DNA from: Candidatus Hydrogenedentota bacterium | GTDB taxonomy: Bacteria; Hydrogenedentota; Hydrogenedentia; Hydrogenedentales; SLHB01 | NCBI GenBank assembly: GCA_903925285.1 | Contig: CAIYET010000770.1 | Location: forward strand, 20,621-84,620 | Direction of reading: 5' to 3' | Length of the DNA: 64,000 nt | Shown: positions 5,146-51,745 of the stretch, piece after piece | Numbering within the stretch: position 1 is the first letter of the stretch | Layout of the letters: each line of letters starts with the position of its first letter | Translations under genes and position numbers: made by a program | The notes under the pieces: generated by a model | Seen by the model: the letters and a program-made list of their open reading frames with translations, nothing else | Told to the model about the DNA's origin: nothing | Database searches by the model: none

Positions 5146-6630
5146 GTGACGCTGAAACTGTTCGCCAAAGACGCTACGATATATGCTGTGGGGAACATAG
5201 GGCTGCGGGCCGCCGCCCTGCTGTTGACTCCCGTTTACACCTATTGTCTCACCGTGAGCGAGTATGGCCTCTGGGCCACGCTGCAAACGACGATACAGAT
5301 CATGTTGATCCTCTTCACCATGGGAATGCGCGAGACGCTTCTGCGTTTCACGAAAGAATACGAAGAGGACAACCGCCTGGGCCATCTGATAGGCACCACG
5401 ACGCTTGTAATCGTGTGTGGCGCACTCGGCGTAAGCGCTGTCACCTTGCTGTTGTTGCTGCCGGTTCTTCAGCATGTCCTGCACACCGACAACATTCGTA
5501 ATTTGATCTTACTGACTTGCGCCGCTGCCCTTGTGCAGTCCTTGAGCATCCACCTTATGTCGTATTACCGGGCGGGCCGTCAGGCAATCAAATTCATGAT
5601 CACGGGGCTGGGCGCCGCCGTCCTCCTTTTCACGGCCACGTTTGTTGCCGTCTATATCCTCAAACTCGGCGTACAGGGCGTTCTGTGGGCCTACATTGCG
5701 AGTTATGCGACCGTGTTCGTCCTGGTGGCGGCCGACGTATTCTCGCGGACGGGTTTCGGGGTCTCGCCGTCGATCGTCCCGCGATTGCTCCAGTTTGGCG
5801 CTCCTCTGATCGTCTCCGCCGCCGGCCAGTTTACCATGGGCGGCGCCAGCGTCTACCTGCTCAGCTACTTTGCGGGACTCGAAGTCGTCGCCATCTACTC
5901 GCTGAGCTACAAGTTCGCCAGCATCCTGCCCATCGTCGTCGCGTTGCCGTTCCAATTGGCCTTCCAACCGCTCGTGTTCTCGAATCTCAACAACCCGGAC
6001 ATTCGGCAGAAGACCGGACGGCTGTTGACCTACCTCGTTCTGGCCTCCACGTTCATGTCATTCTTCCTGGTTGTGGGCACCCACTTTCTGTTGCCTCTGA
6101 TTGCGCCTCCGGCGTACGCCGCCGCGTTCCTTGTGGCGTTGTTCCTGGTTCCGGCACAGGCCTTCTCGGGCATACACGGCTTTGGCGAAACGCTTCTGGG
6201 CGCCGTCAAGAAGACGCATATCGCCGCCTTCTTCAATGCGGGAGGCGCCATCGTCTGCGTGCTGTTGAACCTCGTGCTGGTGCCCCTCCTCGGATGGTAT
6301 GGCGCTGCAATCGCCACGGGTGTTTCCCTCATCGCCGTGGATACCACCGAAGCGGGAATCGGGATAAAGGAATTCAAGATTGGCGGCGAAATCGAGTGGC
6401 GGCGACTGATCATAATGGGCACTGGATTCGTGGCCTTCCTCGTTCTGTCTTCCGTGCTGTACACAATGCCCGCCATTGTCTTCTACTGTGGCGAGACCGC
6501 GTTCTGCCTGGCATCGCTGGCCGTCCTATGCGTGATTCCTTTCTTCTATGAGAACGAGAAGGCGGTCTTCCGTCAGATGACCCAAAATCTTGTGGCTCGC
6601 GTTCGCGCACAAAGAACTCCGTCATGTTGA
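5146..6630 (+). CDS. Wzx-type polysaccharide flippase (MOP superfamily)
   Basis: Multi-pass membrane protein of ~494 aa. The N-terminus FAKDATIYAVGNIGLRAAALLLTPVYTYCLTVSEYG is typical of oligosaccharide flippases. Confidence 0.7.
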   Translation: MTLKLFAKDATIYAVGNIGLRAAALLLTPVYTYCLTVSEYGLWATLQTTIQIMLILFTMGMRETLLRFTKEYEEDNRLGHLIGTTTLVIVCGALGVSAVTLLLLLPVLQHVLHTDNIRNLILLTCAAALVQSLSIHLMSYYRAGRQAIKFMITGLGAAVLLFTATFVAVYILKLGVQGVLWAYIASYATVFVLVAADVFSRTGFGVSPSIVPRLLQFGAPLIVSAAGQFTMGGASVYLLSYFAGLEVVAIYSLSYKFASILPIVVALPFQLAFQPLVFSNLNNPDIRQKTGRLLTYLVLASTFMSFFLVVGTHFLLPLIAPPAYAAAFLVALFLVPAQAFSGIHGFGETLLGAVKKTHIAAFFNAGGAIVCVLLNLVLVPLLGWYGAAIATGVSLIAVDTTEAGIGIKEFKIGGEIEWRRLIIMGTGFVAFLVLSSVLYTMPAIVFYCGETAFCLASLAVLCVIPFFYENEKAVFRQMTQNLVARVRAQRTPSC

Positions 6631-8030
6631 GCCAATTGACCCGGGATTTTGTCCCGCCCTTGCTGGTGTCATCGGCCTTGGTGATGGGGATTATGTCTAT
6701 CGGGCTGTTCCTGTTGTGCGTCAAACGCTACGAAGTGGCTATTCTCTTGATCCTCGCCTCCGATTGGGTCCACTGTTTCTACAACAAGAATGCGCCCGAT
6801 GCGGTGGGGCAGGTCGAAAGCAATCCAGCAACCTATATCCGGTTGGCCCTGGTCATCATGGTGGGCGTTATCGGATATTTCAAGTTCATCCAAGGCCAAC
6901 ACGTTCAATCCGAGCCGCGCACGTCAGTAAGCGGAACCGCCAGCCAGGATGAGCTTCCACTTCACTTCAAATTGCTCGGGGCATTCCTGCTGTTTGCCCT
7001 TTTCTCCACAACCTATTCAATCTCCCGGTCTTTTACACTCGTCCGAGTGCTGGAATTTCTCGCATTCTATGGATTCCTACTGGAATTGCATTACTGGATC
7101 GAGGACGAAGCCCGGATGGATAAAGCGATCAACGCACTTTTCCTCGTGACCGCATTAGGGATGTTGGTCAACCTCAGTGCCCTCTTCCTGTTGCGAAATC
7201 GTGTGTGGTATTACGAATCTCCCAACCGCTTTCAGGGTGTGATGGCAGGCCCCAACCAACTAGGAGCCATCATAATGGTTTCCTATGTCGTTTTCATGTG
7301 GAAATTCGCAACCTCCGACGCCCGGGGCAGAATTTGGCCCGTGCTTTTTTTTCTCCTCGCCTTGTTCATGCACGGCTTGTCTGGATCGCGATCCAGCATC
7401 GTTTCCGCAGTGGTCGGCTTTTTTATCTGGGCACTTGTGATGAAGAAGACCAAGATGCTGGCCTTGCTCCTTGTCCTTGTCGCATCGGGCGTCATCGTGA
7501 TTTCCGCCGGGGGCTTGCCCAGTCTCAAGCGCGAGCAAGCGGATAAAGACTCCATCGCCGATCTGACCGGAAGAACCAATATTTGGAATAAATCGTTCGA
7601 GGCCCTGCAGGCAAGACCTTTGCGTGGATACGGCTTTCAGGTTGGCGGCGCAATCTTCGCGCAATTGAAGCTCACCTCCAAGGACTATTTCCTGAATGAC
7701 AATACGACGGCGCGGTTTTCGCTGCATAACGGTTATCTGAGCGTGGCTGTCGGTTGCGGGATTCCCTGCCTACTGTTGTGGGTTGTGGCATTGCTACTGC
7801 CGCTTAAGCAGGGGTTCTCATTGCCCCTCAGCCCCTACAAAGCGCTCGGTATCGTCATGATTGCCCAATGTATGACCCACAATTGCGTGGAAGATTTCGT
7901 AACGCTCGCAAGCCGGAGCATGCCTTCGATGTTCTTCTGGATTTGCTGGGTGATCTGCGGCAGATTGCCTGCCCTGCAACGCGGCGCGCCGTCATACGCA
8001 GCGGCCGGACTTCACGAGGAAGCAACATGA
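6624..8030 (+). CDS. Wzy / O-antigen-ligase-like polymerase (multi-pass membrane)
   Basis: At least 10 predicted TM segments. LSGSRSSIVSAVVGFFIW and RGYGFQVGGAIF are Wzy_C-like. It overlaps both neighbours (7 nt upstream, ATGA downstream). Confidence 0.65.
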   Translation: MLSQLTRDFVPPLLVSSALVMGIMSIGLFLLCVKRYEVAILLILASDWVHCFYNKNAPDAVGQVESNPATYIRLALVIMVGVIGYFKFIQGQHVQSEPRTSVSGTASQDELPLHFKLLGAFLLFALFSTTYSISRSFTLVRVLEFLAFYGFLLELHYWIEDEARMDKAINALFLVTALGMLVNLSALFLLRNRVWYYESPNRFQGVMAGPNQLGAIIMVSYVVFMWKFATSDARGRIWPVLFFLLALFMHGLSGSRSSIVSAVVGFFIWALVMKKTKMLALLLVLVASGVIVISAGGLPSLKREQADKDSIADLTGRTNIWNKSFEALQARPLRGYGFQVGGAIFAQLKLTSKDYFLNDNTTARFSLHNGYLSVAVGCGIPCLLLWVVALLLPLKQGFSLPLSPYKALGIVMIAQCMTHNCVEDFVTLASRSMPSMFFWICWVICGRLPALQRGAPSYAAAGLHEEAT

Positions 8031-9218: not shown

Positions 9219-10640
9219 ATGAGTAAGGGCAAGGTTTTGATAATCAGCAGCGATGCTGAACTGTCGGAAACCATTGTTCAGGTTTTGGAGCAGGCTGAGT
9301 TCGACGTGGTTGCTGCCGCCAACAAGACGACGGCTCTGGACTTGGCCAAGAGTGACGTTTTCGAACTGGTGGTGGCCAATCTCACCTCACCCGATCATTC
9401 CAGTCTGGGAATACTGAGACATCTTAAGGATTCCTTTCCCACCACCGAAATCATCATGTCCTCCACCAATCCAACCCTGGACTCGGCGATCGCATCGATC
9501 CGGGAAGGCGCGTACGACTATCTCTGGCTGCCTCAGGACTTGACTTGGCTGCCTGAGTCGGCCAGCGGCGCCATCATGCGCCGCCGGAGAAAGATGAAGA
9601 TATTCGCACCGGACGAGGTCGGCGAAACGTCCGAGGACGCGATGGAAAGAACAACGAGTTCCGGCGCGGTGCGCGGCCATGTACCGGATCCAGCCGAAGA
9701 ACTCAGTGCTTCCGTGATGATTGGCGATACCCCATCGATGGTTGCCGCGCGGCAGCTTCTCTTGCAGGTGGCTTCTTCGGATATGACAGTACTGGTGCGG
9801 GGAGAGAGTGGTACGGGGAAAGACGTTGCGGCGAGATTGATTCACCGGGTATCGCCTCGAAACGAGACGGGCACATTCGTCAAGATTACGTGTCCCGCCG
9901 TACCCGAGTCGCTGCTGGAATCCGAATTGTTCGGTTACGAACGCGGGGCTTTCACGGGCGCCGTGGCACAGAAACCCGGCCGGTTCGAATTGGCGGGCAA
10001 AGGGACCATTTTCCTGGACGAAATTGGTTCAATCTCGCTGGCCATGCAAGCCAAACTCCTCGACGTAATCGAGCACAAACAGTTCACCCGTGTCGGGGGC
10101 GTCAAGACGATCACCGTGGATGCGCGCATCATCGCGGCCACCCATTGCCCCCTCGAGGAAATGATAGCGCGCGGGGAGTTCCGAGCCGACTTGTTCTACC
10201 GGCTTGAGCAGTTCACGATTACGCTGCCGCCGCTCCGGGAAAGAACCGAAGACATACTGCGCTTGTGCCGCCATTTCTTACGTTCGCACGCCGCCAAGTA
10301 TGGCTTCAAGCACCGCAAGACTCCGTTTCACATCATGGACCGGCTGGTCCGCTACCCGTGGCCCGGCAACGTCCGTGAGTTGGAGTCCACCATTGCACGG
10401 TTTGCCCTGACCGGTGAAATCGCCACATTCGAAGATGTCATGGAACCGGCCTCGGGCGAATCCCCGGCAAGTGCACCGGTGGCCAGCAAACTGGAAGAAG
10501 TAGAGGTCGCCGCCATCAAGGCTGCTTTGGAAGAGACACGCTGGAACAGACGCAAGGCGGCGGAGAAGCTCGGTATCAGCTACAGTGCCTTGAGGCGAAG
10601 ACTGGCAAAATACGACCTTGAAGGACGTAGTAACTCGTAA
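9219..10640 (+). CDS. Sigma54-dependent enhancer-binding protein (NtrC/PrsR-like): atypical receiver + AAA+ + Fis-type HTH
   Basis: Walker A is GESGTGKDV. The GAFTGA loop (ERGAFTGA) is present. The C-terminal HTH is RWNRRKAAEKLGISYSALRRRL. The receiver has Asn at the position aligned with the phospho-acceptor Asp. Confidence 0.85.
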   Translation: MSKGKVLIISSDAELSETIVQVLEQAEFDVVAAANKTTALDLAKSDVFELVVANLTSPDHSSLGILRHLKDSFPTTEIIMSSTNPTLDSAIASIREGAYDYLWLPQDLTWLPESASGAIMRRRRKMKIFAPDEVGETSEDAMERTTSSGAVRGHVPDPAEELSASVMIGDTPSMVAARQLLLQVASSDMTVLVRGESGTGKDVAARLIHRVSPRNETGTFVKITCPAVPESLLESELFGYERGAFTGAVAQKPGRFELAGKGTIFLDEIGSISLAMQAKLLDVIEHKQFTRVGGVKTITVDARIIAATHCPLEEMIARGEFRADLFYRLEQFTITLPPLRERTEDILRLCRHFLRSHAAKYGFKHRKTPFHIMDRLVRYPWPGNVRELESTIARFALTGEIATFEDVMEPASGESPASAPVASKLEEVEVAAIKAALEETRWNRRKAAEKLGISYSALRRRLAKYDLEGRSNS

Positions 10641-10854
10641 CACTACGAATTCGTTCTATCTCGATAGGGCTTCGGGGTTTTCTTTGACGGGTAAACGAAC
10701 CTTGATCTTGGTGGCCAAGTGTCGGTTTCGACTAATTATTGACCGGCAATAGTTGGCCAAGAAGGCCGCATCACAAGGTTTCGTTGAACGCATCGAAGTG
10801 CGATTTCTCATACAAACCCGCTCGAATTGCAGCGAACTGGACGTGAGTCCTTAT

Positions 10855-10870
10855 TGGCACATAGATTGCT
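10855..10870 (+). promoter_or_regulatory. Sigma54 (-24/-12) promoter
   Basis: TGGCACatagaTTGCt is an exact match to TGGCAC-N5-TTGC. It lies ~50 nt upstream of the ATG at 10919, which is preceded by an AGGAG RBS, and ~215 nt downstream of the sigma54 activator gene. Confidence 0.7.
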
Positions 10871-10918
10871 TATAAATTGGTGCAGTAGTGAAAATGATTC
10901 CTCAACCAGGAGTAGACT

Positions 10919-11323
10919 ATGAGCGAGAATTTCAGGATGTTGAACTGGGCGATCGAACACGAACTTCGATGTTCTCAACGCTACCGGCGTTTCTTGACAG
11001 TTGTCGGTGCGGAATGCCAGGACACGGACACTGGGCTTAAGGGATTGCTCGGCGAGGTACTCCGGGGAAGTGATGAGATCATCGAGTTGGACTCGACGGA
11101 AGTGGCCATCGTCATGGCTGAAACAGACAGGCTGGGCGCGTTGATGGCCATTGACCGGTATCATGCCCGGTTCAATGGCGCCTTCGACATCCGTTTCGGT
11201 GTCGCCACGTTTCCGCTCGATGCCGGCGACCACGAGGCCCTCCTGGGCAGAGCGCGAAGCCGCCTGCTTAAGGCCAAGAAAGGGCAACCCGGCACAGTGA
11301 TCTCGGAGGACGAATCGCAATAG
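10919..11323 (+). CDS. Small stand-alone degenerate GGDEF-like protein (I-site RxxD retained, active site DSTEV)
   Basis: LRGSD-EIIEL-DSTEVAIVMAETD aligns with RxxD-x5-GGDEF-hydrophobic-xxT of diguanylate cyclases. FGVATFPLDAGDHEALLGRARSRLLKAKKG matches the GGDEF C-terminal SiGvA...AD.AlY.AK.G region. An AGGAG RBS and the sigma54 promoter lie upstream. Confidence 0.6.
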   Translation: MSENFRMLNWAIEHELRCSQRYRRFLTVVGAECQDTDTGLKGLLGEVLRGSDEIIELDSTEVAIVMAETDRLGALMAIDRYHARFNGAFDIRFGVATFPLDAGDHEALLGRARSRLLKAKKGQPGTVISEDESQ

Positions 11324-11414
11324 ATCGTCAAGAATGAGTTCTCGTAGTGGTGAGCGGAACGAGTAGGCTCCATTCGATGGAGTTCGGGAAAGCAAGGAAG
11401 CGGAGGGACACATC

Positions 11415-11855
11415 ATGTTGGAAATGCTGCGGAAGTTGACGGTAAAGAAGGCGCCGGGGAATGGAATGGAGACAAAAGGGTTTTTGTCGCAAGATGATTT
11501 CGCCGACCAGCTAATCAAGGAGCGTGCCCGTGCCGATCGTGCCGGCGCTTCTTTCACGCTGCTCGCTTTCGATGTTGAGACGCCACCGGGATTGAACGGC
11601 AAGGCCGAGGCCATGGAGATTCTCGCGTCAATACTCGCGAAGCGGGCGCGCGTCACCGATACCAAGGGTTGGTTCGGTAACCGCTTGGGCATCATCCTAC
11701 CGAACACGCCGACCGAAAACGCCGACAATGTCGTTCGACCCATTCAGGAACAGTTCAAAAAGACCGTCGTTTCCAATTCGCCACACGCGTCTAAAGCACC
11801 CAAGATTGCTTATCAGGCATATGAGTATCCGAATAATGAAATAGTAAATGTGTAG
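11415..11855 (+). CDS. Second small degenerate GGDEF-like protein (I-site RxxD retained, active site GNRLG)
   Basis: GFLSQDDFADQLIKERARADRAGASFTLLAFDVE matches the GGDEF N-terminal block. RVTD-TKGWF-GNRLGIILPNTPTENA aligns with RxxD-x5-GGDEF-xxxxPxT. The start codon is uncertain (Met1, Met4 or Met18). Confidence 0.6.
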   Translation: MLEMLRKLTVKKAPGNGMETKGFLSQDDFADQLIKERARADRAGASFTLLAFDVETPPGLNGKAEAMEILASILAKRARVTDTKGWFGNRLGIILPNTPTENADNVVRPIQEQFKKTVVSNSPHASKAPKIAYQAYEYPNNEIVNV

Positions 11856-11922: not shown

Positions 11923-12777
11923 ATGGCTACGGAGCATGATAAAATGTATACTATCGTAAATTCCCATCCCGGAACGAACGGGAAGAACGGGCGGGTAAGG
12001 TACGTTGCGGAGAGTCGAGAAGCTTCGACCGTTATGAGTCAGCCATCGGAACTATGCTTTGGGCGTCGGATTCCCTTGTGGAAGCGTGCCTTTGACATCA
12101 TCGGTTCCGGGGTGGGCTTATTCCTGCTTTCACCGCTTTTCCTACTCATCGCCCTTTACATCAAGATCGTGTCGCCCGGCCCCGTGTTCTTTAAGCAGAA
12201 CCGGATTGGCTGGTCAGGGAAAGAATTCACCATGTGGAAGTTCCGCTCGATGCGCCCCGATGCGGATTCCTCCGTCCATCGTCAACACATGGCCAAACTC
12301 ATCCAGAACAGTACCGATCCCAGTGATAAGCGCTCCGTGCAGGTCTTGACGAAAATCGCGAACGATCCCCGAATCATCCCATTTGGTGTGATCTTTCGTA
12401 AGTCGTGTTTGGATGAACTGCCCCAACTGATTAACGTGTTCCTCGGCTGCATGACCTTGGTTGGTCCCCGCCCCGCCATCCCCTATGAGGTCGAAAAGTA
12501 CATGCACTGGCACAAGGAACGCTTTGACACGGTCCCCGGCATGACCGGGCTGTGGCAAGTGAGTGGAAAGAACAAACTCTCGTTCAAGGAAATGGTGCGC
12601 TTGGACATCCGATATGTACGGGAGAGGTCGCCGTGGTTGGACATCAAGATCCTCCTTAAGACCCCGCCGGCCATTATCATCCAGGTGCGAGAGAATTGGC
12701 TAGTCAGGCAACGCAACAGCCGCGTTGAAGCGGCAGGAAAAGCACGCGCGCGGACTACTGCAAAGATCAACGAATAA
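11923..12777 (+). CDS. Polyprenyl-phosphate sugar-phosphate transferase (small WbaP/EpsL-type priming enzyme)
   Basis: KRAFDIIGSGVGLFLLSPLFLLIALYIKIVSPGPVFFKQNRIG..GKEFTMWKFRSM, DELPQLINVFLGCMTLVGPRP and PGMTGLWQVSG are bacterial sugar-transferase signatures. Confidence 0.85.
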   Translation: MATEHDKMYTIVNSHPGTNGKNGRVRYVAESREASTVMSQPSELCFGRRIPLWKRAFDIIGSGVGLFLLSPLFLLIALYIKIVSPGPVFFKQNRIGWSGKEFTMWKFRSMRPDADSSVHRQHMAKLIQNSTDPSDKRSVQVLTKIANDPRIIPFGVIFRKSCLDELPQLINVFLGCMTLVGPRPAIPYEVEKYMHWHKERFDTVPGMTGLWQVSGKNKLSFKEMVRLDIRYVRERSPWLDIKILLKTPPAIIIQVRENWLVRQRNSRVEAAGKARARTTAKINE

Positions 12778-12805: not shown

Positions 12806-15800
12806 ATGAAACGGAGAGGTTCTTCTCTTCTTTTAGATGTTGTGTCCTTATTACTTCTTGTCGGCGGTCTATATCACTCTCCGGCGTACGCCTATGCCAG
12901 TCCCGAGTCGACTTCGTTATCCGCTGATACACGGGCGGTTAAGCTGGATGCGTCGACTGTAATTCATATCCAGCCCGAGGGCGATCTTGACCCAAACTGG
13001 TCGTATGAATGGTCGGTCGATCGAGGCGAAATCGACGAGATTTCGGGCAACACAACCGCAATCTACACGGCTACAGCCGACCTGGATCCGGGGTGGGACA
13101 CCGTAACCGCGACGATCTGGGACAACTCGCCTCCGGGTCCGCCAATCCTTGTGGCAACGCGTACTATCGTGCTTCTCGTTTTCAAGCAGTTCATCATTCT
13201 CAAGGCAGACGATTGGCAACGCTGGGAATGGGCTCCGCCCGGCGCAAGTCCCAACTGGACGTATTACATGAACTATTGCATCAATGTGAAGCATATCAAG
13301 ACGTCCGCCGGCATCATGAACTTCTCCCTGGATCCGGACTACCCGGAGCCCCAACCCGCGCCCCCCGATCCCCCTATTAACTATTATCTTGCCGACTTCA
13401 TCGCCTACACCCAATCGCTCCATAACACGGGATATGTCGAGTTCTGGAATCACGGACAGACTCATATTTGCGACCCGTATGAATTCCAGGGTTCCTCGTA
13501 TGCGTTTCAGGCCGAGCATCTCGCGTACGGCCAAACCCAATCGCTGGCATTGCTTGGATTTACCTACACGGCATTCGGCGCGCCCTGTAACGCCATCGAC
13601 GACACGACTACCGCAGTCATTAATGACGCGCCAGACATCAAGGTGTGGCTCTTCGGTCTCCCCGAATCGACGAAGATGGTCCTTGAAAATGGCAACGGAG
13701 AGATTGAACCAGGCGACGTCGGCGTACCGAGTTATCTGGGTTTTCTCGCAGGGTATGACGCCGAGGCCGATTACGTCGTGCTGCAGCACCATCCCGCTTT
13801 CGAGGAATTCAGAAGCAACTTTGGCGAGTTCAATCTGATCATCGAGTACCTGCTCGACCAAAAGGCCACGTTCATCAAGCCCACCGAGTACTACCGCCTG
13901 ATCCACGACGGCATATTGCCGCTTGATCCTCAAGGCGACGTGCCGCCCTATATCACAACCCAGCCGGTGTCGCAGACGGTCAACCCTCATGACGACGTCA
14001 CGTTCACGGTGGAAAACACCGGCTCATTGCCCCTGGCCTATCAATGGAAAAAGGAAGGCGAAGAAATCCCAGACGCCACCACCGCGACCTACATAATTTC
14101 AGCCGCGACGGAAGCCGATGAAGGAGACTATGTATGTATAGCGACGAATCCGGCGGGAAGCGCCATATCCGATCCCGTCGCGTCGCTTAGCGTGAATGAC
14201 CCGCCGGAAATCGGCGAAGATCCCGTGTCACAGTCCGTGGACCCCGGCGATTCCGTGACATTCTCCGTGACGGTCACGGGCGCCCCGCCCTTGAGCTACG
14301 CATGGAGCAAAGACTACGGCGAGCCAATATCCGGCGCGACGGACGCTTCTTACTCGATAGATCACGCGACCCAAGACGATGAAGGCGAGTATGTCTGTTT
14401 TGTCAGCAATGAAGCGGGCATGATTCTCAACGACAATGAAACGTCCAATCCTGGGATGTTATGGGTGAACGATCCGCCGACGGTCACCGAGTCGCCCGTG
14501 TCTCAAACGAAAAACTTCGGCGACGTGCCGCAATTCTCGGTCGTCGTTACAGGCACCATACCCCTTTCTTTCCAATGGCGAAAGGGCGGTGTCGCCATCG
14601 AAGATGCAACGGATACGATACTGACCCTTCCCGCCGTGGCTAACGTCAACGAGGGGAGCTACGACTGCGTGGCGACCAACAGCGCCGGAACGGATACCTC
14701 TGCGTCGGCCACATTGACGGTTCAAGATCCCATCATTTTCACCCAGCCTGAAAACGTTCAAGTACTCGCGGGCGGTACGGCACACTTCAATGTCGTTGCC
14801 GGTGGCACTGGCAGCCTCTTATACAAATGGTTTCAAGGCGAAAGCCCGTTGAGCGATGGGGGCGATATTGGCGGCTCGGCGACCCCGAACCTTCAGATTG
14901 CAAACGTGACGAATCCCAATCCGGTTGAATACCACTGCGATGTAACCGGCGAGGATGGAACGATCGTCTCCGCCACGGCAACCCTCGAGGCAACCGACCC
15001 CGCCATTGCCACTCAACCCATTTCCCTTACGCGGAACCCCTCTGAAGAGGCTACGTTTTCGGTGGTTGCCATGGGGACCAGTCCGTTCACCTACCAGTGG
15101 CTCAAGAACGCCGAGAATGTACAGGGCGCTACCGAGGCGTCCTACACAATCCCGGGCGTCACAGAAGGCGACGAAGGGGAATACCGCTGCCTGATTTCCA
15201 ACAGCGTCAGTCCAGCCGGTATCCGGTCGAATCCGGCAGCCTTGGTCGTGAACGACCCGCCCATCATTACGACGCACCCCGTATCGCAGTCCGTCGATCC
15301 GACGGATCCCGTTACGTTCGCCGTGACCGCCACCGGCACGGCTCCGTTAAGCTACGAGTGGCGGAAAAACACGGTATTGATTCCCGGGGCGACCCGGTCT
15401 TCGTATTCCATCGCCGCCACCGTCCCAAATGACGCAGGCCAATATACTTGCTATGTAACTAATCAAGCGGGAATCATCTCGGCCCAAAACAAGCTGTCGG
15501 ACCCAGGCGTCCTGACGGTGAATGCGCCACCCGCCATTAGCGCCCAGCCACAGAGTGCAACAAAGAATCCGGGCGAGTCTGCAACATTCGGCATCACGGC
15601 AACCGGCGCCGCCCCTTTACAATATCAGTGGCGGAAAAACGGCAGCGAAATGCCCGGCAAGACCCTGTCCTCGCTTGGCTTCGCATCGGTAGCCGAAACC
15701 GACCAGGCGGCCTACACCTGCTACGTCAGGAACTCCGCGGGGGACAAGACCAACGCGAACGTCGAGTCCGCCCCGGCCGTGCTGACAGTGACCGACCCGC

Positions 15801-17770
15801 CCACGATTACCCGGCAGCCGGCTTCTCAGACCATCGCACCTGGGCTCTCCGTCACGTTTTCGATCGCCGCGACCGGTACATTGCCTTTCTCGTACCAGTG
15901 GAAGAAAGGTGTCCAGGATATCTCCAACGCGACGAACGCTCAGTACAGCATCGCTCATGTGTCGCAAACCGACCAGGGGCTTTATTCCTGTCATATCGCC
16001 AATTGCGCGGGAAGCGCGTTGTCGGATCAGGCCACGCTGACGGTTTTCGAGGCTGTCAAGATCGTCACCCAACCCGTTTCGGAGTCCGTGAACTATGGCG
16101 TACCCGCACAGTTCAGCGTCTCTGTCACCGGCGCGCCGCTCATCGATTTTCAGTGGCGAAGGGGAGGCGTGCCACTGGCAAACACCGGCAGGATTTCTGG
16201 CGCAGACGCGGCAACACTGCATATCGCCGCCAGCGTGAACGTGGATGAAGGCAGTTACACCTGCCGCGTCAGCAATCAGTTCGGCGCCATGACATCCTAT
16301 TCCGCGGTGCTGACGGTAAACGATCCTGCGATCGTCTCGCAGCCCCAAGGGGCGCAGGTACTGGTTGGCGGTACCGCCATGTTCTCGACGGAAGCCGTGG
16401 GCAGTGCGTTGACGTATCGGTGGTATAAAGGGGCCTCCCCATTAAGCGACGGCTCCAATATCAGCGGTTCAAGCGCGGCCACGTTGGCCGTAAGCAATTG
16501 CACCGGAGCGGACGAAGGCGCTTATCATTGTGTGGTTGGTGGCAGACCAGACCCGTCCGTGATTTCGGCAGACGCCGAACTCGATGTGGGCGATCCGGCC
16601 ATTCTCACTCAGCCGCAGTCCCAAACCGTAGATCCCGGCGTTGGGGTTACCTTCTCCATCCAGGCAGGGGGTACGCCTACATTCAGCTATCTGTGGCACA
16701 AGAATGGAATTAACATCGAAGGAGCGACGAACGACGTTTTCGTTATTGCTTCCGTCGCAGAAACCGACGAAGGCGCCTATAGCTGCCGCGTCACAAGTCC
16801 CGTTCGGCCCCTCGGAATCGAGTCGGACGAAGCAGGCCTGATCGTGAATGACCCGCCCGTCCTCGAGGGTGCGTTTGTCGACCCGCCCGGTGGACAAATC
16901 CATGCGATGAACTCCGCCAGTCTGACCGTGGGAATCTTGGGCGGTACGGCGCCCTTCTCGTACCAGTGGAAAAAGGACGGCAACAATGTCGATGACAATG
17001 GCCGGATTACGGGCAGTCGGACGGCAGCGCTTGCCGTCAATTCGGCGGTACAGGACGATGAAGGGGTTTATACCTGCGTTGTGACGAACTCGGCAGGCAG
17101 CAACACCTCCGACGCGGTTCATTTGATTGTCGGCGACCTGCTGGACTTCATCCGGCGGTTGGAGGATCAGAAAGAATACGTGGGCAAGGAAGTGCGCTTC
17201 ACGGTCCAGGTGATCGGCGGCCGTGGGACGATCGAATATGCGTGGAAGTTCCAAGGTGCGCGCAAGACGGCGATGCCGGTGGGCGCCAATTTGTCCACCT
17301 TAACGATACCCCAGGTAGCGCTGGCGGATGCCGGTTTATACTGGTGCGACGTGACGGACCAGCGGGGAACGCATCCCTCGAATCAAGCGGCACTCCAAGT
17401 GGCGTCTTCTTCCTTGGAGATCATCCAGGATCCGAGCGGCGGGCAGGGCACGTTAGGTTCACGGTACGAGTTCACCGTAGCGACGCGTGGCGGTTTCCTG
17501 CCCCTAACATACGAATGGCGCAAGGGTGACGTGCCGATTTCTTCCGCCACCACCTCAACGTTCACGATTCCGTCACTCCAAGATACGGATGCGGGAATCT
17601 ACACGGTCATCGTTTCGGACAGCGATTTCCATGTGTGTCAATCGAACACGGCCATTCTCGAAGTGATATCGGGCTTGTCGGTCGGCGGCCTTGCAGGTCT
17701 CTTACTGTTGACAACCATGCTTGCATTGGCCAGCACAGTCGTCTTGCGGAAATTTTTTCATATGATATAG
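12806..17770 (+). CDS. Giant surface protein, paralog 1: signal peptide, small beta-sandwich, CE4/DUF2334-like head (DD and H-x3-H present), 14 I-set-type Ig repeats, C-terminal TM anchor
   Basis: A signal peptide is present. The head carries ILKADDW...FWNHGQTH. There are 14 repeats of ~90 aa carrying [YF]xW[KR]K...DxGxYxC...N. The protein ends with a hydrophobic helix plus RK. Confidence 0.8.
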   Translation: MKRRGSSLLLDVVSLLLLVGGLYHSPAYAYASPESTSLSADTRAVKLDASTVIHIQPEGDLDPNWSYEWSVDRGEIDEISGNTTAIYTATADLDPGWDTVTATIWDNSPPGPPILVATRTIVLLVFKQFIILKADDWQRWEWAPPGASPNWTYYMNYCINVKHIKTSAGIMNFSLDPDYPEPQPAPPDPPINYYLADFIAYTQSLHNTGYVEFWNHGQTHICDPYEFQGSSYAFQAEHLAYGQTQSLALLGFTYTAFGAPCNAIDDTTTAVINDAPDIKVWLFGLPESTKMVLENGNGEIEPGDVGVPSYLGFLAGYDAEADYVVLQHHPAFEEFRSNFGEFNLIIEYLLDQKATFIKPTEYYRLIHDGILPLDPQGDVPPYITTQPVSQTVNPHDDVTFTVENTGSLPLAYQWKKEGEEIPDATTATYIISAATEADEGDYVCIATNPAGSAISDPVASLSVNDPPEIGEDPVSQSVDPGDSVTFSVTVTGAPPLSYAWSKDYGEPISGATDASYSIDHATQDDEGEYVCFVSNEAGMILNDNETSNPGMLWVNDPPTVTESPVSQTKNFGDVPQFSVVVTGTIPLSFQWRKGGVAIEDATDTILTLPAVANVNEGSYDCVATNSAGTDTSASATLTVQDPIIFTQPENVQVLAGGTAHFNVVAGGTGSLLYKWFQGESPLSDGGDIGGSATPNLQIANVTNPNPVEYHCDVTGEDGTIVSATATLEATDPAIATQPISLTRNPSEEATFSVVAMGTSPFTYQWLKNAENVQGATEASYTIPGVTEGDEGEYRCLISNSVSPAGIRSNPAALVVNDPPIITTHPVSQSVDPTDPVTFAVTATGTAPLSYEWRKNTVLIPGATRSSYSIAATVPNDAGQYTCYVTNQAGIISAQNKLSDPGVLTVNAPPAISAQPQSATKNPGESATFGITATGAAPLQYQWRKNGSEMPGKTLSSLGFASVAETDQAAYTCYVRNSAGDKTNANVESAPAVLTVTDPPTITRQPASQTIAPGLSVTFSIAATGTLPFSYQWKKGVQDISNATNAQYSIAHVSQTDQGLYSCHIANCAGSALSDQATLTVFEAVKIVTQPVSESVNYGVPAQFSVSVTGAPLIDFQWRRGGVPLANTGRISGADAATLHIAASVNVDEGSYTCRVSNQFGAMTSYSAVLTVNDPAIVSQPQGAQVLVGGTAMFSTEAVGSALTYRWYKGASPLSDGSNISGSSAATLAVSNCTGADEGAYHCVVGGRPDPSVISADAELDVGDPAILTQPQSQTVDPGVGVTFSIQAGGTPTFSYLWHKNGINIEGATNDVFVIASVAETDEGAYSCRVTSPVRPLGIESDEAGLIVNDPPVLEGAFVDPPGGQIHAMNSASLTVGILGGTAPFSYQWKKDGNNVDDNGRITGSRTAALAVNSAVQDDEGVYTCVVTNSAGSNTSDAVHLIVGDLLDFIRRLEDQKEYVGKEVRFTVQVIGGRGTIEYAWKFQGARKTAMPVGANLSTLTIPQVALADAGLYWCDVTDQRGTHPSNQAALQVASSSLEIIQDPSGGQGTLGSRYEFTVATRGGFLPLTYEWRKGDVPISSATTSTFTIPSLQDTDAGIYTVIVSDSDFHVCQSNTAILEVISGLSVGGLAGLLLLTTMLALASTVVLRKFFHMI

Positions 17771-17797: not shown

Positions 17798-20700
17798 ATG
17801 AGAGCCAATTGGACAAGGGAAATACTGAAATTCAAGAGGAAGGTTCTGGCTGGCTTCATACTGGCCATGGTTCTGGCGGCGCCGGGTTACGCCTTTGTCG
17901 ACCCCGAAACCATCTCCCTGTCAGCCGACTCCAAATCGGTCCGTTTGAACGAGACGACCATCATTCGTATTAACGAGACCGACTTGGACCCGCAGTGGAC
18001 CTATCAGTGGAGTGCCGTGAGGGGGGCGGTCGTCGCGAACCCCAATCCCCTCGCCCCCCATACGGCCATTTACACGGCGACGGCGGGATTGGATCCGGGA
18101 GAGGATGTTATCACGGTCGCGATCTACGATAACACCCCGCGGCTTCTTGCAACACGAACAGCCGTCGTTCTGGTTTTCAAGCAATTCATCGTCCTGAAAG
18201 CCGGCACGTGGGGCGTTATCACCACTAACTGGCAGTACTATTTTCAGCAGCTCCTCGATCTCCACATCAAGACGGCCGTTGCCATAATAACGCATTTCAT
18301 CGACCCGCTTTATTCCGGGTATGCCGGCCCTGCGTTTGTCACGTACACGAAAGCCAGACATGACAGTGGTTATGTCGAGTTCTGGAATAACGGGTATGAC
18401 TTCTCGAACGGTGCAGGTCCGCCAGCCTGGTGGGAATTCAGGGGAACGACCTACGGCTCTCAAAAGACACACCTCGAGGCCGGGCAGACGCTCGCCAACA
18501 CCACGTTGGGGTTTCCGTTCACGGCATTCGGCGCTCCCTACAACCAGTTGGATACAACCACCACTACGGTCGTCAACGAATCCCCCGAATTGCGGGTATG
18601 GCTATTCGGCGCAGCTACCGGCTCCACCAAAATGGTACTGACCCACGCTAACGGCGAGATAGAACAAACGACTGGACTGCCGAGTTTTACCTATTTCATG
18701 AGTACCTATAGCGCCACGCCCCGGTACGTCGTCCTCCAACACAATCCGGGCATGAATTCCTTCTACACCAACTTCCAACAGTTCAGGGACATCCTTAACT
18801 ACCTTATCGCCCAGAAGGTCACGTTTATCCTACCCACCGAGTATTGCCGCTTGATCCAGGACGGGATCCTCCCGTCAAACCCGGGCCGGACACCTTTCTT
18901 CATGGTGCAGCCAACCTCGCAGACGGTTAACCCGACGCAGAAAATCACCTTGACCGCTACGGCCTTGGGTACACAGCCCATCTCCTACCAGTGGAAAAAG
19001 GGCGGGACTAACGTTTCCGATGCGACGACCGATACGCTCATCATCACCGCTGCCGGACAATCGGACGAAGGCAGCTACCTATGCACGGCGACAAATATCC
19101 ACGGGAGTACGGATTCCAATCCAGCGACTTTGGCGGTCGACGATCCGCCGACGATTACCACCCAACCATTGTCCCAAACCCTGGATCCCGGCGTTTCGGT
19201 GACATTCACGGTCGAAGCGACTGGGACGGCCCCGTTGAGTTACGAGTGGCGAAAAGACAATTCGACCATTCCCGATGCCACGGATCCATCCTACACAATT
19301 TATCCCGTGGCCGAGTCGGATGAGGGCGCATACGCCTGTTACGTCAGCAATGCGGCCGGCAGCCAGGCCAGCCAGAACGTACTTTCCAACTCGGCGTTTT
19401 TTTCGGTGAACAACCCCGCTTACGTCATTGCCGACCCGGTGTCGGCCACTACGGACTACGGACTTTCGGCAACGTTTTACGTGATGGCAGGGGGGACTCC
19501 GCCCATCAGCTATCAGTGGCGCAGGAATGGCATCGGCATCGGCGCCGCCACCGACACGGAATACGCGATCGACAACTGCTCGAACGCCGAAGAGGACAAC
19601 TATGACTGCGTAGTGACAAACAGCGCAGGAGGCAGCGCCTCCGCAGCCGCTCGATTGGCCGTCAACGATCCTATTATCATCGGACAGCCGGAGGATGCGC
19701 AAGCGCTCGCGATGTCGACGGTGCACTTCACGGTCACTGCGGCTGGCAGCGGCGAGATCGCCTACCAATGGTTCAAAGAAACGACGGTGCTCGAGGACGC
19801 CGGAAAGATCAGCGGCGCCACCTCGCGAATCCTCCAAATCGAGGGTGTAACGGACTCCGATCAAGGGGTCTATCACTGCGCAGTCACCGGAGGCGATCCT
19901 ACGATTGTGACCCGCGACGCCCTTTTGGAGATCAGCGACCCTGCGTTTACAACGGAACCTCTGTCGCAGACCGTGAATCCCACCGATTCGGTGACCTTCT
20001 CCATCCGGGCGGTGGGTACGCCGCCATTCAGCTATCAGTGGCGGGATACGAACGGAATCGACATCGAAGGAGCGACGAGTGAGGATTTCGTTATTCCATC
20101 CGTTGCAGAAACCGACGAAGGCGCCTATAGCTGCCTCGTCACAAGTCACGTCCGGCCCTTGGGCTTCGAGTCGGCTCAGGCAGGCCTGGTCGTGAACGAC
20201 CCGCCCCTGATCGAAACGCAGCCCGAGTCGAAATCGGTCGATCCCACCGATCTCGTCGTGTTTAGCGTAGTGGCCACGGGCACGGATCCCTTGAGTTACG
20301 AGTGGCGCATAGGCGGCGTGCCGATTCCCGGCGCTACACGCGCAACCTATACCATTGTCTCCGCGCAGCAATCCGACGCGGGGCCGTACACCTGCTATGT
20401 GGCCAACGAGGCTGGCACGGTGTCCGGTCACAACACGACATCCGGCCCGGCTGTCCTGTATCTCTACGGTTTGCCGACCATTACGGTCCCGCCCATAAGT
20501 CAGACGGTGGATCCGAACCATCTCGTGACATTCAGCGTTGTGGCGGCAAGTGAAACGCCAATGAGCTATCAGTGGCGCCTGAACGATCTCAACATTCCAG
20601 ACATGACCGAGTCGACGTTGAGCATTCCGCTTGTCCAGGAGAGCGACGAAGGCGACTATACTTGCGTTGTCGGCAATTCCGCCGGAGACAAGACGAATAC

Positions 20701-22744
20701 GAATACGATATCCGCCCCAGCGACGCTGACGGTCAATGATCCCCCCGTCATCGTCGTTCAACCCGAGTCGCAACTCATCGCACCGGAATATGAAGTGTCT
20801 TTCTCGGTAACGATTACCGGTACGCCGCCTTTCAGCTTCCAATGGAGGAAAGGTGCGACTACTATCGGTGAAGAGACCGCTGACTCCTACACGAGTTCCT
20901 ACACCATTGCATCCGTGGCATCGAGCGACGCTGGCGTCTACTACTGTCACGTTAGGAACAGCGCGGGGCAGGTTACTTCCGATGGTGCGACGCTGAGGGT
21001 TCTGGAACCGGCAAGGATTGTGACCCAACCGGTCTCGCAGGAACTCAACTATGGGACAGCGGTGGAGTTTTACGTACAGGCGGACGGAATGTTACCGCTC
21101 TATTACGAGTGGAGAAAGAATGGCATTGCGCTCGTGGACGGCGGTAGGGTGTTGGGCGTTTCCGAGGCCCGGCTGAGCATCGAGGCTGCCGAAAACGGAG
21201 ATGAAGGCGATTACACCTGCTACGTTATCAACGATTTTGGCGGCATCGAATCGGCGGCCGCCACGCTGATTGTCCATGATCCCGCCATCACCGCGCAGCC
21301 TCAGCACCAAAGTGTGATGGGCGGCCACACGGCGCAGTTCTCGATAGGCGCGGTCGGCAGCAACCCTGTTTACAGGTGGTACAAGAACGGCCTGGCGTTA
21401 AGCGATACCGGCAGCATCGGCGGCTCGTCCACAGCCGTATTGAATGTCGACAACTGCCAAGTCGCCGACGAAGGCGTCTATCGCTGCACGGTCGCCGGCG
21501 GACCGGATGCGGATGTAACCTCGCAAGACGCAACACTCGCGATCGACGACCCCGCCGTCATTACACAACCGCAATCACAGACGGTTGACCCGGACGATAC
21601 AGTGACGTTCGCATTGGAGGTCGATCTCGATAGCTCCACGCCCATCACCTTTCAGTGGCGCAAAGACGGCAATGATATCCAGGACGCGAGCGGTGGTGTA
21701 ACGATCGGTCTCCCGATCACGTACGTCATCGCCAACGCGGCAGAGACGGACGAAGGCAGTTATACCTGCCTGCTCCGCGGGTTCGAGGACGTTGTCTCCA
21801 ACGCCGCGACGTTGAGCGTCAACGACGTTCCCGTTATTTCGGGCGTGGACGTGGACCCGCCGGACGCCCGGATCCAACTATCGAGCTCGGCCAGTTTCAC
21901 CGTTCAGTTGTCTGGCGGGACGGAGCCAATCTCGTACGAGTGGAAGAAAGATGGGATCGTCCTTACCGAGAGCGACCACGTCTCGGGTGTTTCGCAGCGG
22001 ACGCTGATCGTTAATCCCGCGCAACAGCAGGATGAAGGCCGCTATACGTGTGCCGTCTACAATTCCGCGGGCAGGGCGGTGTCTTCGGAGGTATATCTGA
22101 TTGTCGGCGAGATCCGTGCTTTTACGCAGCAGCCCTTAACCGAGCAAAAGAAATACATTGGCCAAGCGGTGCAGTTCGAGGTCGAGACCGTGGGGGGCCG
22201 CGGAACGCCTCACTACGCTTGGACATTCGACGAACGGCAAAAAACCACACAACCCGTGGGTGACGATTCACCCCTGCTGGTTTTCACGGTCACGCAGGCA
22301 AAGGCCGGCGCGTATAGGTGCGGCGTAACCGATGAGCGGGACACCTATTACTCGAATACGTCCACACTGGACGTTGCGTCGCCACTCGAGATACTCCAAC
22401 AACCACGAGGAGGTCTTGTGGCCGAAGGTTCCCTGCACACCTTTGCCGTGCAAACAAGCGGTGGATTCTTACCATTGGCTTATGAATGGCACAAGTACGA
22501 TGTCCCCACGGTTCTTGGAACGAACGTAACGTTGACGCTCGACCCCCTTCAAACGAGTGATTCCGGATCCTACTATGTCATTGTGTCAGACGCCATCAGC
22601 AGCGTCGAATCCAACACCGCTCCCTTGTTCGTCGGCACAAACGTTCCCGCAGCGGGCTTTGTGGCCTTGGGACTGTTGGCAGGAATATGCACCTTGGTTG
22701 GCGCGCTCACACTCGGTTCGAGGGGGCGTTCCACGTTTCCGTAA
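17798..22744 (+). CDS. Giant surface protein, paralog 2: same architecture, 14 Ig repeats, head motifs substituted (GT and N-x3-F)
   Basis: Collinear with paralog 1. For example, repeat 4 has WF[QK], repeat 10 has YRWYK and repeat 13 has YAW in both. The C-terminus is VPAAGFVALGLLAGICTLVGALTLGSRGR. Confidence 0.8.
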   Translation: MRANWTREILKFKRKVLAGFILAMVLAAPGYAFVDPETISLSADSKSVRLNETTIIRINETDLDPQWTYQWSAVRGAVVANPNPLAPHTAIYTATAGLDPGEDVITVAIYDNTPRLLATRTAVVLVFKQFIVLKAGTWGVITTNWQYYFQQLLDLHIKTAVAIITHFIDPLYSGYAGPAFVTYTKARHDSGYVEFWNNGYDFSNGAGPPAWWEFRGTTYGSQKTHLEAGQTLANTTLGFPFTAFGAPYNQLDTTTTTVVNESPELRVWLFGAATGSTKMVLTHANGEIEQTTGLPSFTYFMSTYSATPRYVVLQHNPGMNSFYTNFQQFRDILNYLIAQKVTFILPTEYCRLIQDGILPSNPGRTPFFMVQPTSQTVNPTQKITLTATALGTQPISYQWKKGGTNVSDATTDTLIITAAGQSDEGSYLCTATNIHGSTDSNPATLAVDDPPTITTQPLSQTLDPGVSVTFTVEATGTAPLSYEWRKDNSTIPDATDPSYTIYPVAESDEGAYACYVSNAAGSQASQNVLSNSAFFSVNNPAYVIADPVSATTDYGLSATFYVMAGGTPPISYQWRRNGIGIGAATDTEYAIDNCSNAEEDNYDCVVTNSAGGSASAAARLAVNDPIIIGQPEDAQALAMSTVHFTVTAAGSGEIAYQWFKETTVLEDAGKISGATSRILQIEGVTDSDQGVYHCAVTGGDPTIVTRDALLEISDPAFTTEPLSQTVNPTDSVTFSIRAVGTPPFSYQWRDTNGIDIEGATSEDFVIPSVAETDEGAYSCLVTSHVRPLGFESAQAGLVVNDPPLIETQPESKSVDPTDLVVFSVVATGTDPLSYEWRIGGVPIPGATRATYTIVSAQQSDAGPYTCYVANEAGTVSGHNTTSGPAVLYLYGLPTITVPPISQTVDPNHLVTFSVVAASETPMSYQWRLNDLNIPDMTESTLSIPLVQESDEGDYTCVVGNSAGDKTNTNTISAPATLTVNDPPVIVVQPESQLIAPEYEVSFSVTITGTPPFSFQWRKGATTIGEETADSYTSSYTIASVASSDAGVYYCHVRNSAGQVTSDGATLRVLEPARIVTQPVSQELNYGTAVEFYVQADGMLPLYYEWRKNGIALVDGGRVLGVSEARLSIEAAENGDEGDYTCYVINDFGGIESAAATLIVHDPAITAQPQHQSVMGGHTAQFSIGAVGSNPVYRWYKNGLALSDTGSIGGSSTAVLNVDNCQVADEGVYRCTVAGGPDADVTSQDATLAIDDPAVITQPQSQTVDPDDTVTFALEVDLDSSTPITFQWRKDGNDIQDASGGVTIGLPITYVIANAAETDEGSYTCLLRGFEDVVSNAATLSVNDVPVISGVDVDPPDARIQLSSSASFTVQLSGGTEPISYEWKKDGIVLTESDHVSGVSQRTLIVNPAQQQDEGRYTCAVYNSAGRAVSSEVYLIVGEIRAFTQQPLTEQKKYIGQAVQFEVETVGGRGTPHYAWTFDERQKTTQPVGDDSPLLVFTVTQAKAGAYRCGVTDERDTYYSNTSTLDVASPLEILQQPRGGLVAEGSLHTFAVQTSGGFLPLAYEWHKYDVPTVLGTNVTLTLDPLQTSDSGSYYVIVSDAISSVESNTAPLFVGTNVPAAGFVALGLLAGICTLVGALTLGSRGRSTFP

Positions 22745-24916: not shown

Positions 24917-25557
24917 CGGAATCCAACGCAACGTCAACTTAACGAGTTTTGTCAAAGTTAGCTGGATAAATTCTATCCGTATTCTCCCTTTCTTGTCAAT
25001 AAACGCTTACAGGAATGTCTTATCCGGTCAAGAAACGGCGGCTTCTGGTGTTGGGTCCACAATACGTGCTGTCATCCTTGGCCGTGTGTTGAATTTGGCC
25101 ATTTATGGCGTTGCGAAATTCGTTCAGAATTATCACTTCTATGCGCTTTTCCTCTTCAGATTCCGCGATGTGGTCGCCAAACACGCGATTTGGACGCAAG
25201 AACGTAACGAGCCGCGATTGAACGGTTGCTGGAACCGGCGGCTGGCAAAGGCCGGATAATGCACGGATCGGGAACCCAGCGGCTTAGCCCAAGGTCGGCT
25301 GTTCGTCAGGAATAAAATGCAACGATTCGTCGTTAGCCCCACAACCGTTTGGACCCGCTCATGGCTGATCCCGTTCCAGCTTCCAGGAACAACCTGAAAT
25401 GCGATGCAAGCACGTGCAATGATCCTTGCGTTCCGCTTCGTGCATAATCGCACCATGTCGTGCTATATTCGCTCAGCAACCGATCGCAGCAATCGCGGGA
25501 TGATGCCGTGTGTGCGTTTTGGGAGGCCCATCCCAAGAACGCCGTTCTGGAGGGGGC

Positions 25558-33614: not shown

Positions 33615-33653
33615 TTACAGTTCCTCTTTTTACAGGAGTCAGGATTCCGAATT

Positions 33654-33792: not shown

Positions 33793-33812
33793 TTTCTTCT
33801 TTTACTTGGCTC

Positions 33813-51578: not shown

Positions 51579-51745
51579 AATATACCCTGCACAAAACATG
51601 CCTCATGCGGACCTCTAAATGTTTACTTCAACATATAGGTAGTAAATATCCAACCATCTGTCGTCATGCGCACGGAAACATCGATTCCCACACGTTGAAA
51701 CAGTATGTCACAATATCTGTGAAACCTCAAGGGACACGAATCAAC

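Follow-up and report, generated by a model that had tools for sequence, protein, structure and literature searches.

Two minimal GGDEF-fold proteins encoded beside a small phosphoglycosyl transferase in Hydrogenedentota: candidate c-di-GMP sensors at the start of polysaccharide synthesis

What role is left for two small GGDEF-like proteins that appear to have lost the capacity to make cyclic di-GMP (c-di-GMP), and is it linked to the polysaccharide genes among which they are encoded? This question is raised by a 64,000-nucleotide stretch of DNA from a Candidatus Hydrogenedentota bacterium (contig CAIYET010000770.1; the whole stretch is hereafter referred to as the window), in which two open reading frames (ORFs) on the forward strand, ORF1 (10919-11323, 134 aa) and ORF2 (11415-11855, 146 aa), are located between the gene for a sigma-54 enhancer-binding response regulator (EBP) and that for a small monotopic phosphoglycosyl transferase (PGT). 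The explanation that is favoured here, with a confidence somewhat above even, is that both proteins are c-di-GMP-sensing, catalytically dead regulatory subunits consisting of a single GGDEF-fold domain, and that ORF2 gates the PGT. This explanation draws on the conservation of particular residues of a known c-di-GMP pocket in two diverged protein families, and on the association, extending to gene fusion, of ORF2-type domains with PGTs. An earlier inspection of the DNA letters, made without database searches (the sequence-only reading), had located both ORFs and the motifs RGSD (11063-11074), DSTEV (11090-11104), RVTD (11649-11660) and GNRLG (11676-11690), and all of these coordinates proved to be exact.

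Two conserved genes, their fold and their active-site region

ORF1 and ORF2 are real, conserved genes, each preceded by a ribosome-binding site (AGGAG, 6 nt 5' of the ORF1 start, and GGAGG 5' of the ORF2 start). Word-indexed searches with the single sequences retrieved three close relatives for each protein, and profile or alignment-seeded searches were needed to reach the deeper sets: an alignment-seeded search yielded 33 homologs of ORF1, some of them 75-92% identical and 29 more distant, and an exhaustive profile search of 1.84 billion representatives yielded 634 clusters of ORF2 relatives (defined at 50% identity) with E <= 1e-3, 77 of them with E <= 1e-10. The nearest genomes with homologs of the ORF1/ORF2 locus are metagenome-assembled genomes (MAGs) of Hydrogenedentota, and the ORF2-type family has been encountered in Hydrogenedentota, Nitrospirales and Deferribacteres-type genomes as well as in many metagenomes. 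Given this number of clusters, the arrangement, which the sequence-only reading had regarded as unusual, is not a one-off. The few annotated clusters of either type are labelled as 'hypothetical' or, generically, as 'GGDEF domain-containing protein'.

It had also been considered that the real gene might lie on the opposite strand, where an open frame of 311 codons (10808-11743, -, 311 aa) is present, in which case both small ORFs would be artefacts. This candidate was rejected: the antisense frame has no Pfam match and its best NCBIfam match has an E-value of 0.21, it crosses the spacer between ORF1 and ORF2, and the syntenic locus L010 (a Hydrogenedentes chromosome, OY782877.1; homologous loci are designated here by L numbers) does not preserve it, the longest antisense open stretch there covering 118 of 328 codons. 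ORF1 and ORF2, on the other hand, have many diverged homologs, the ribosome-binding sites mentioned above and confident predicted folds, and it is considered extremely improbable that the antisense frame is the true gene. Several of the loci, though not all of them, have long or complete stop-free antisense frames facing their ORF2-type genes, namely L001 (6001-6510), L012 (4001-4369) and L013 (4001-4387) besides the window (10808-11743); their recurrence is probably an effect of codon composition in DNA of 55-60% G+C and not the mark of a gene.

Both proteins are single soluble domains with no Pfam match other than GGDEF, and as single sequences they do not reach the cut-offs of the corresponding models, either for Pfam GGDEF (14.6 bits for ORF1 and 15.4 bits for ORF2, cut-off 23.8) or for TIGR00254 (E = 0.0077 and 15.9 bits for ORF1, E = 0.00059 and 19.6 bits for ORF2, cut-off 37.4). 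Compared with the PDB, the ORF2 family profile gave 21 matches, all of them to GGDEF proteins (best 3ign, E = 2.9e-14), and the ORF1 family profile gave 11 matches, again to GGDEF proteins only (best 6d9m, E = 2.6e-8). AlphaFold models, built from the family alignments as monomers, reached a pLDDT of 91.6 and a pTM of 0.87 for ORF1, and 88.1 and 0.82, respectively, for ORF2. When either model was compared with the PDB by Foldseek, the top 50 matches were all GGDEF domains, including those of WspR, PleD, GcbC, DgcB, DosC and YfiN, with a probability of 1.00 and TM scores of 0.6-0.83, the maximum of 0.83 being reached by ORF1. Family profiles, structure prediction and structure comparison thus agree in assigning ORF1 and ORF2 to the GGDEF fold, as had been proposed from the letters alone, and the opposite outcome envisaged at that time, a lack of GGDEF-fold similarity, was obtained for neither protein. 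Among 102 aligned ORF2-type proteins the only recurrent Pfam matches were GGDEF, at E <= 0.01 in only 12 members, and GGDEF_2, in 6 members, which argues that within the GGDEF fold this family represents a divergent branch not yet catalogued; neither a Pfam model nor a paper on it was found.

The catalytic motif GG[DE]EF is retained in neither protein, in agreement with the sequence-only reading. In ORF1 the position of the PleD GGEEF is occupied by the degenerate D58-S-T-E-V62 (11090-11104, +), in columns that are variable and gapped among the 34 sequences of its family. In ORF2, profile alignments place G88, a gap, N89, R90 and L91 against G-G-E-E-F, so that the motif position is represented by G88-N-R-L91 (11676-11687, +) with a one-residue deletion and no acidic pair. 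The 'GNRLG' that had been proposed as the ORF2 motif was therefore right as regards the spacing from RxxD to the first glycine and, because of the deletion within the motif, shifted in register by one residue at its 3' end. The equivalent columns vary freely among the 102 ORF2-type sequences, and G[DE]EF was found in 0 of the 52 domain copies present in longer relatives.

Further elements of the nucleotide-binding site are reduced as well. The segment between the first strand and RxxD comprises 26 residues in ORF2 and 17 in ORF1 as compared to 32 in PleD (6 and 15 shorter, respectively), which removes the region carrying D344, to which the guanine base is bound in PleD (PMC7288161). No conservation is seen at the position of the metal-binding aspartate (only 33 of 102 sequences have D in ORF2 column 53, and ORF1 has E32 in a variable column), and the AlphaFold model of ORF2 is devoid of the C-terminal phosphate-binding helix of the GTP site. 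With the motif lost and the GTP-binding region truncated, both proteins are predicted to be dead as cyclases. Some nucleotidyl-transferase or cyclase activity in one or both of them, as unusual diguanylate cyclases or other palm-domain enzymes, might be advocated on the grounds that the GGDEF fold belongs to the palm-type folds of nucleotide cyclases and that ORF1 retains the C-terminal helix, in which K120 provides the lysine corresponding to the GGDEF 'AK' motif; it is nevertheless deemed very improbable in view of the missing acidic pair in columns that vary, the unconserved metal-binding position, the truncated guanine-binding helix and, for ORF2, the missing phosphate-binding helix.

Inhibitory-site residues in two diverged families

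In PleD, the inhibitory site (I-site) is composed of RxxD (R359, D362), R390 and, from the neighbouring domain, R313 (PMC7288161), a residue numbering that was verified against the PDB chains. The I-site of WspR is composed of R242 and D245 together with R198 from the neighbouring domain; R198 and R242 contact c-di-GMP, with R198 acting in trans and D245 completing the RxxD core, and the R198A and R242A variants purify nucleotide-free (PMC2270323). ORF1 carries R49-G-S-D52 (11063-11074, +), which is aligned with PleD R359-D362 and in which R49 and D52 are invariant and S51 is conserved in at least 90% of the sequences; R21 (10979-10981, +), which is located in the N-terminal helix, is invariant (34/34) and aligned with WspR R198; and R80 (11156-11158, +), likewise invariant, falls in the alignments on PleD R390, an arginine that counts as the third residue of the primary inhibitory site. 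R21, R49, D52 and R80 are all included in the 11 invariant residues of the ORF1 family (34 sequences).

A comparable pattern was found in ORF2, where R79-V-T-D82 (11649-11660, +) is aligned with PleD R359-D362 and WspR R242-D245, and R42 (11538-11540, +) with WspR R198, which stands 44 residues before R242 in the WspR alignment. R79 and D82 are invariant in all 102 ORF2-type sequences and in all 52 domain copies of the longer relatives, and R42 is present in 102 of 102 sequences and in 51 of the 52 copies. In an alignment of 102 sequences with a mean column identity of 18%, R42, R79 and D82 are the sole invariant residues. The placement of RxxD five residues 5' of the motif position, noted earlier for each ORF, is thus upheld by the alignment with PleD and by invariance in both families.

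A lone RxxD is common, yet an arginine and an aspartate that remain invariant across diverged families take the match beyond chance. As judged from these alignments, ORF1 and ORF2 appear to keep the allosteric c-di-GMP pocket, of which ORF1 would carry the full R21/R49/D52/R80 set. An active site that has been lost, while the residues that grip c-di-GMP have been held by selection, points to c-di-GMP as the most likely ligand of both proteins.

ORF1 and ORF2 had been described as twins, a description that the family comparisons do not sustain. No similarity between them was detected by pairwise BLASTP or by shallow profile comparison, and it was only the alignment of the deep family profiles with hhalign that revealed a relationship (94.6%, E = 6.7e-8), with the RxxD motifs aligned. 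A recent tandem duplication was rejected for this reason. Their genomic partners differ as well, ORF1 being associated with a sigma-54 activator and the start of an operon and ORF2 with a PGT. The order ORF1-ORF2-PGT is also found in L010, and genes of either type occur without the other in several loci. In L001 and L006, ORF1 is followed by wza, wzz/GNVR, AAA ATPase and tyrosine-kinase-like genes and then by ORF2 and the PGT; this block is missing in the window and in L010, and ORF1 and ORF2 consequently abut.

Genomic partners of ORF1 and ORF2

In each of the 12 fetched loci that contain an ORF2-type gene (L001-L004, L006 and L009-L015, from JGI, ENA, Logan and GTDB genomes that include Hydrogenedentota, Nitrospirales and a Deferribacteres-type MAG), the gene that follows immediately 3', on the same strand, encodes a PGT homolog. 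Moreover, among the best 150 of the 634 ORF2-type representatives, 40 exceed 210 aa, and in 34 of these 40 the domain is fused N-terminal to a PGT catalytic domain. Two tandem copies of the domain are present in 10 of the 40 longer relatives and three copies in one, and no partner domain other than the PGT was recognised in this group. Such repeated fusion, which constitutes 'Rosetta stone' evidence, argues that ORF2 acts on the PGT, and together with the adjacency it makes the link to a priming glycosyltransferase stronger than the sequence-only reading had claimed. Small monotopic PGTs have a cytoplasmic N-terminus (PglC-type topology), and it is in the cytoplasm that a sensor of nucleotides would have to sit. 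ORF1 was seen beside the ORF2-PGT pair only in the window and in L010, and a partnership between ORF1 and the PGT is not established.

A conserved protein of about 190-240 aa is encoded immediately 5' of the ORF2-type gene in L001 (5188-5913), L003 (5207-5926), L006 (8899-9480) and L004 (1-522). No Pfam model matches it, and its last residues read '...NK(Q/R)RH.IPDFIY(R/S)(R/K)L'. Its resemblance is to the ATPase half of a tyrosine autokinase, and the ORF2-PGT pair may have a further partner in it. In one very long protein (P0081, 6351 aa), a stretch of about 50 residues of the ORF2 profile is matched 9-10 times with a period of about 199 residues; the scores of the single repeats are weak, and the matches are probably a compositional or repeat artefact.

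ORF1, like other genes of its type, appears to open a sigma-54-driven polysaccharide operon. A promoter-like element of the -24/-12 type, TGGCAC-ATAGA-TTGCT (10855-10870, +), ends about 50 nt 5' of the ORF1 start and is the only exact match to TGGCAC-N5-TTGC in the whole window. With one mismatch allowed, about two occurrences of this pattern are expected by chance, and it is therefore the position and the conservation of the element that carry the weight of the promoter call. In this regard, comparable elements are found 5' of the ORF1-type genes of L001 and L005 (one mismatch each, at 36-52 nt) and L010 (exact, at 80 nt), and weaker sigma-54-like elements precede those of L006 and L016. The sole other near-match in the window, with one mismatch, lies inside carA (33338-33353) and is probably due to chance.

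The EBP (9219-10640, +) consists of a receiver (REC) domain, an AAA+ Sigma54_activat domain and HTH_8 (Pfam Sigma54_activat, E = 1.6e-63, in addition to Response_reg and HTH_8), and its NCBIfam matches are to NtrC-like and PEP-CTERM-box regulator-like models, under the equivalog cut-offs. An EBP homolog adjoins the ORF1-type gene in the window, L001, L005 (divergently oriented), L006/L007 and L016, and the EBP of the window is likely to be the activator of the promoter that precedes ORF1. In L005 the EBP (5252-6277, -, 341 aa) has no receiver domain and is divergent from the ORF1-type gene (7001-7393, +), an arrangement that would fit a regulatory input provided by ORF1 in trans.

The PGT itself (11923-12777, +), which starts repeat-unit synthesis, matches Pfam Bac_transf with E = 2.4e-61 and TIGR03025 EPS_sugtrans with E = 3.5e-77 and 260.5 bits, below the curated cut-off of 295.55. 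A Wzx/Wzy-type polysaccharide cluster, comprising genes for a deacetylase, a FemAB-like protein, a GFO oxidoreductase, Wzx, Wzy and a GT2 glycosyltransferase, is located 5' of the EBP gene. Directly 3' of the PGT gene, and apparently in the same operon, two paralogous giant proteins of 1654 and 1648 aa are encoded (12806-17770 and 17798-22744, +), each with more than 10 Ig/I-set domains of the eukaryote type and, at the C-terminus, a hydrophobic anchor; another Ig protein, the third, has a beta-helix as well and is encoded at 22754-24955 (-). These Ig-repeat proteins may be surface adhesins or polysaccharide carriers. Scans for terminators and sigma-70 promoters inside the operon gave nothing above the shuffled background.

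Elsewhere in the window, 29679-31034 (-) encodes another initiating transferase, which is of the large type (CoA_binding_3 and Bac_transf, 451 aa) and has no GGDEF-like gene beside it. The genome thus encodes two PGTs or more, and of these two it is the small one alone that has a candidate sensor next to it. A pyrimidine biosynthesis block at 32520-36690 (-) contains carA and genes for a dihydroorotase-like protein, aspartate carbamoyltransferase and a PyrR-type phosphoribosyltransferase, and a protein with an N-terminal methylation motif and DUF1559, a type that is abundant in Planctomycetota-like and related lineages, is encoded at 50589-51599 (-).

A possible switch on the initiating transferase

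According to the favoured explanation, ORF2 would be a regulatory subunit of the small monotopic PGT encoded directly 3' of it. As the level of c-di-GMP rises, an intercalated dimer of this nucleotide would bridge the RxxD of one domain and the R42 of a second, as is the case in WspR and PleD, the second domain being another ORF2, ORF1 or, in the fused versions, the next tandem copy. Cross-linking of the domains would change the activity or the assembly state of the attached or associated PGT, and the transfer of the first sugar phosphate to undecaprenyl phosphate would be licensed only in a biofilm-type signalling state, a direction of the effect that we infer, as we do the ligand. ORF1 would represent a second c-di-GMP sensor, which would either exert feedback on the sigma-54 activator or serve as the cross-linking partner of ORF2. 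The wider proposition, that ORF2-type proteins constitute a large unnamed family of minimal c-di-GMP sensors that directly gate small monotopic PGTs and that ORF1 belongs to a second sensor family tying the signal to sigma-54-driven operon expression, is put forward more tentatively, with a probability that falls a little short of even.

Several observations weigh against this scheme. Small monotopic PGTs have been reported to work as monomers (PMC12802240), and a switch based on dimerisation is therefore not assured. The position of PleD R390 is taken in ORF2 by P109, in a variable column, and the ORF2 family has no equivalent of R390 or of the corresponding R402 of PelD, which is needed to bind c-di-GMP (PMC8461298). 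Instead of lining a ligand pocket, the conserved arginines and aspartate might belong to an interface between proteins or be engaged in an internal salt bridge. Neither diguanylate cyclase nor phosphodiesterase genes were found when these were sought by motif and Pfam in the 64-kb window. Finally, ORF1-type genes occur away from ORF2 or a PGT in L005, L008, L016 and L017, so that a mechanism shared by ORF1 and ORF2 is weakly supported.

Some of these points would be accommodated if both proteins served as GGDEF-fold adaptors or regulatory subunits of the PGT and of the operon without any sensing of c-di-GMP, an explanation that is regarded as unlikely on the whole, though by no means negligible. 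The invariant Arg/Arg/Asp would then form a contact surface with the PGT or the activator, or would accommodate an anionic ligand of a different kind, for instance (p)ppGpp, a cyclic dinucleotide other than c-di-GMP, UDP-sugar/UMP or a lipid phosphate head-group. The coupling to the PGT holds firmly regardless of what the ligand is, the R390-equivalent arginine is missing in ORF2, cyclase genes were not found in the window, and the ORF2 family has conserved motifs of its own, K84-G85-W86 and Y138-P139, outside the canonical I-sites; in addition, the PDB holds structures of PleD with ppGpp or pppGpp (9g85, 9g86), of which only the existence is considered here. What argues for c-di-GMP instead is that the invariant positions coincide with the c-di-GMP contacts of WspR and PleD in two independently diverged families, and that RxxD is dispensable for the GGDEF fold as such, many active diguanylate cyclases being devoid of it.

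It is also conceivable that ORF1 mainly modulates the EBP, as an anti- or co-activator with or without c-di-GMP, and is unrelated to ORF2, in which case the adjacency of the two genes would be an accident of the missing wza-wzz-ATPase block that separates them elsewhere. This option, which overlaps in part with the favoured explanation, is given the standing of a minority view. It is in keeping with the position of ORF1-type genes beside an EBP gene in the window, L001, L005, L006/L007 and L016, with the four genes that intervene between ORF1 and ORF2 in L001 and L006, and with the separate occurrence of ORF1 and ORF2 in several loci. However, an EBP was not detectable in the fetched DNA of L008, L010 and L017, fusion of ORF1 to an EBP occurs in 0 of 33 homologs, and the place of ORF1 as the first gene after the promoter may reflect no more than co-regulation of the operon.

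The proposed function of ORF1 and ORF2 in c-di-GMP sensing can be compared with that of known receptors. PelD, the Pel receptor of Pseudomonas aeruginosa, possesses a degenerate GGDEF domain without cyclase activity that binds dimeric c-di-GMP through R367, D370 and R402, is encoded in a polysaccharide operon and turns synthesis on post-translationally (PMC8461298). ORF1 has the same R/D/R triad, whereas ORF2 is without the R402 equivalent. PelD sits in the membrane by four transmembrane helices, includes a GAF domain, belongs to a synthase-dependent pathway and recruits the glycosyltransferase PelF, whereas ORF1 and ORF2 each consist of one soluble domain (134 and 146 aa, respectively) that is shorter than a normal GGDEF domain, with neighbours of the Wzx/Wzy type rather than pel genes and with a PGT as partner. 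With PleD and WspR they share the fold, the RxxD five residues before the active-site hairpin, the WspR R198 equivalent and, in ORF1, the PleD R390 equivalent; in those proteins, however, the I-site mediates product inhibition of an active enzyme, whereas in ORF1 and ORF2, which would have no enzyme activity left to inhibit, it could serve only as a sensor.

As regards the proposed target, it has been demonstrated that in Myxococcus xanthus EpsW, a response regulator made up of a single domain, switches on the initiating PGT EpsZ by direct contact, and regulatory domains fused to small monotopic PGTs have been noted (PMC12802240). EpsW-EpsZ, the closest functional analogue, and ORF2-PGT both involve a small stand-alone signalling domain and the first enzyme of a Wzx/Wzy-dependent exopolysaccharide pathway, a role that for ORF2 is a proposal. 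EpsW, on the other hand, is a phosphorylated receiver domain that promotes dimerisation of a large monotopic PGT, whereas ORF2 has a GGDEF fold, a presumed nucleotide signal and a small monotopic PGT. PopA, PssE and YdaK are further degenerate-GGDEF receptors of c-di-GMP that retain an I-site. BcsE (GIL/degenerate GGDEF) is the I-site c-di-GMP receptor of cellulose secretion and, like PelD, activates a polysaccharide machine (PMC8461298); in kind, PelD and BcsE come closest to ORF1 and ORF2. All of these receptors are larger than ORF1 and ORF2 and either contain several domains or are anchored in the membrane, and where they act on polysaccharides it is in synthase-type systems. We know of none among them that pairs with a PGT or that forms a minimal family of 130-170 aa with tandem-copy fusions. 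Compared with known receptors, the novelty would thus reside in a minimal soluble family without a Pfam model, in its tandem-copy fusions and in a Wzx/Wzy-type PGT as the proposed target. Full-text literature searches retrieved no paper linking GGDEF-like domains to PGTs, with a prior listing in a monoPGT fusion survey still possible.

Post-translational control of Wzx/Wzy-dependent pathways has been described as incompletely understood (PMC12802240), and direct control by c-di-GMP has been documented in synthase-dependent systems, i.e. those for cellulose, alginate, Pel and PNAG (PMC8461298). Undecaprenyl phosphate is scarce, and the step at which it becomes committed to a polysaccharide is a natural point of control. 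To our knowledge, post-translational control by c-di-GMP is so far known only in synthase-dependent polysaccharide systems. If the wider proposition is correct, ORF2 and its relatives would provide the first second-messenger switch to act on the initiation of undecaprenyl-phosphate-dependent polysaccharide synthesis of the Wzx/Wzy type, and c-di-GMP control would be extended to the other major type of polysaccharide pathway. Structural and biosensor studies would also gain a receptor of minimal size, about 130 residues, and a name would become available for several hundred protein clusters.

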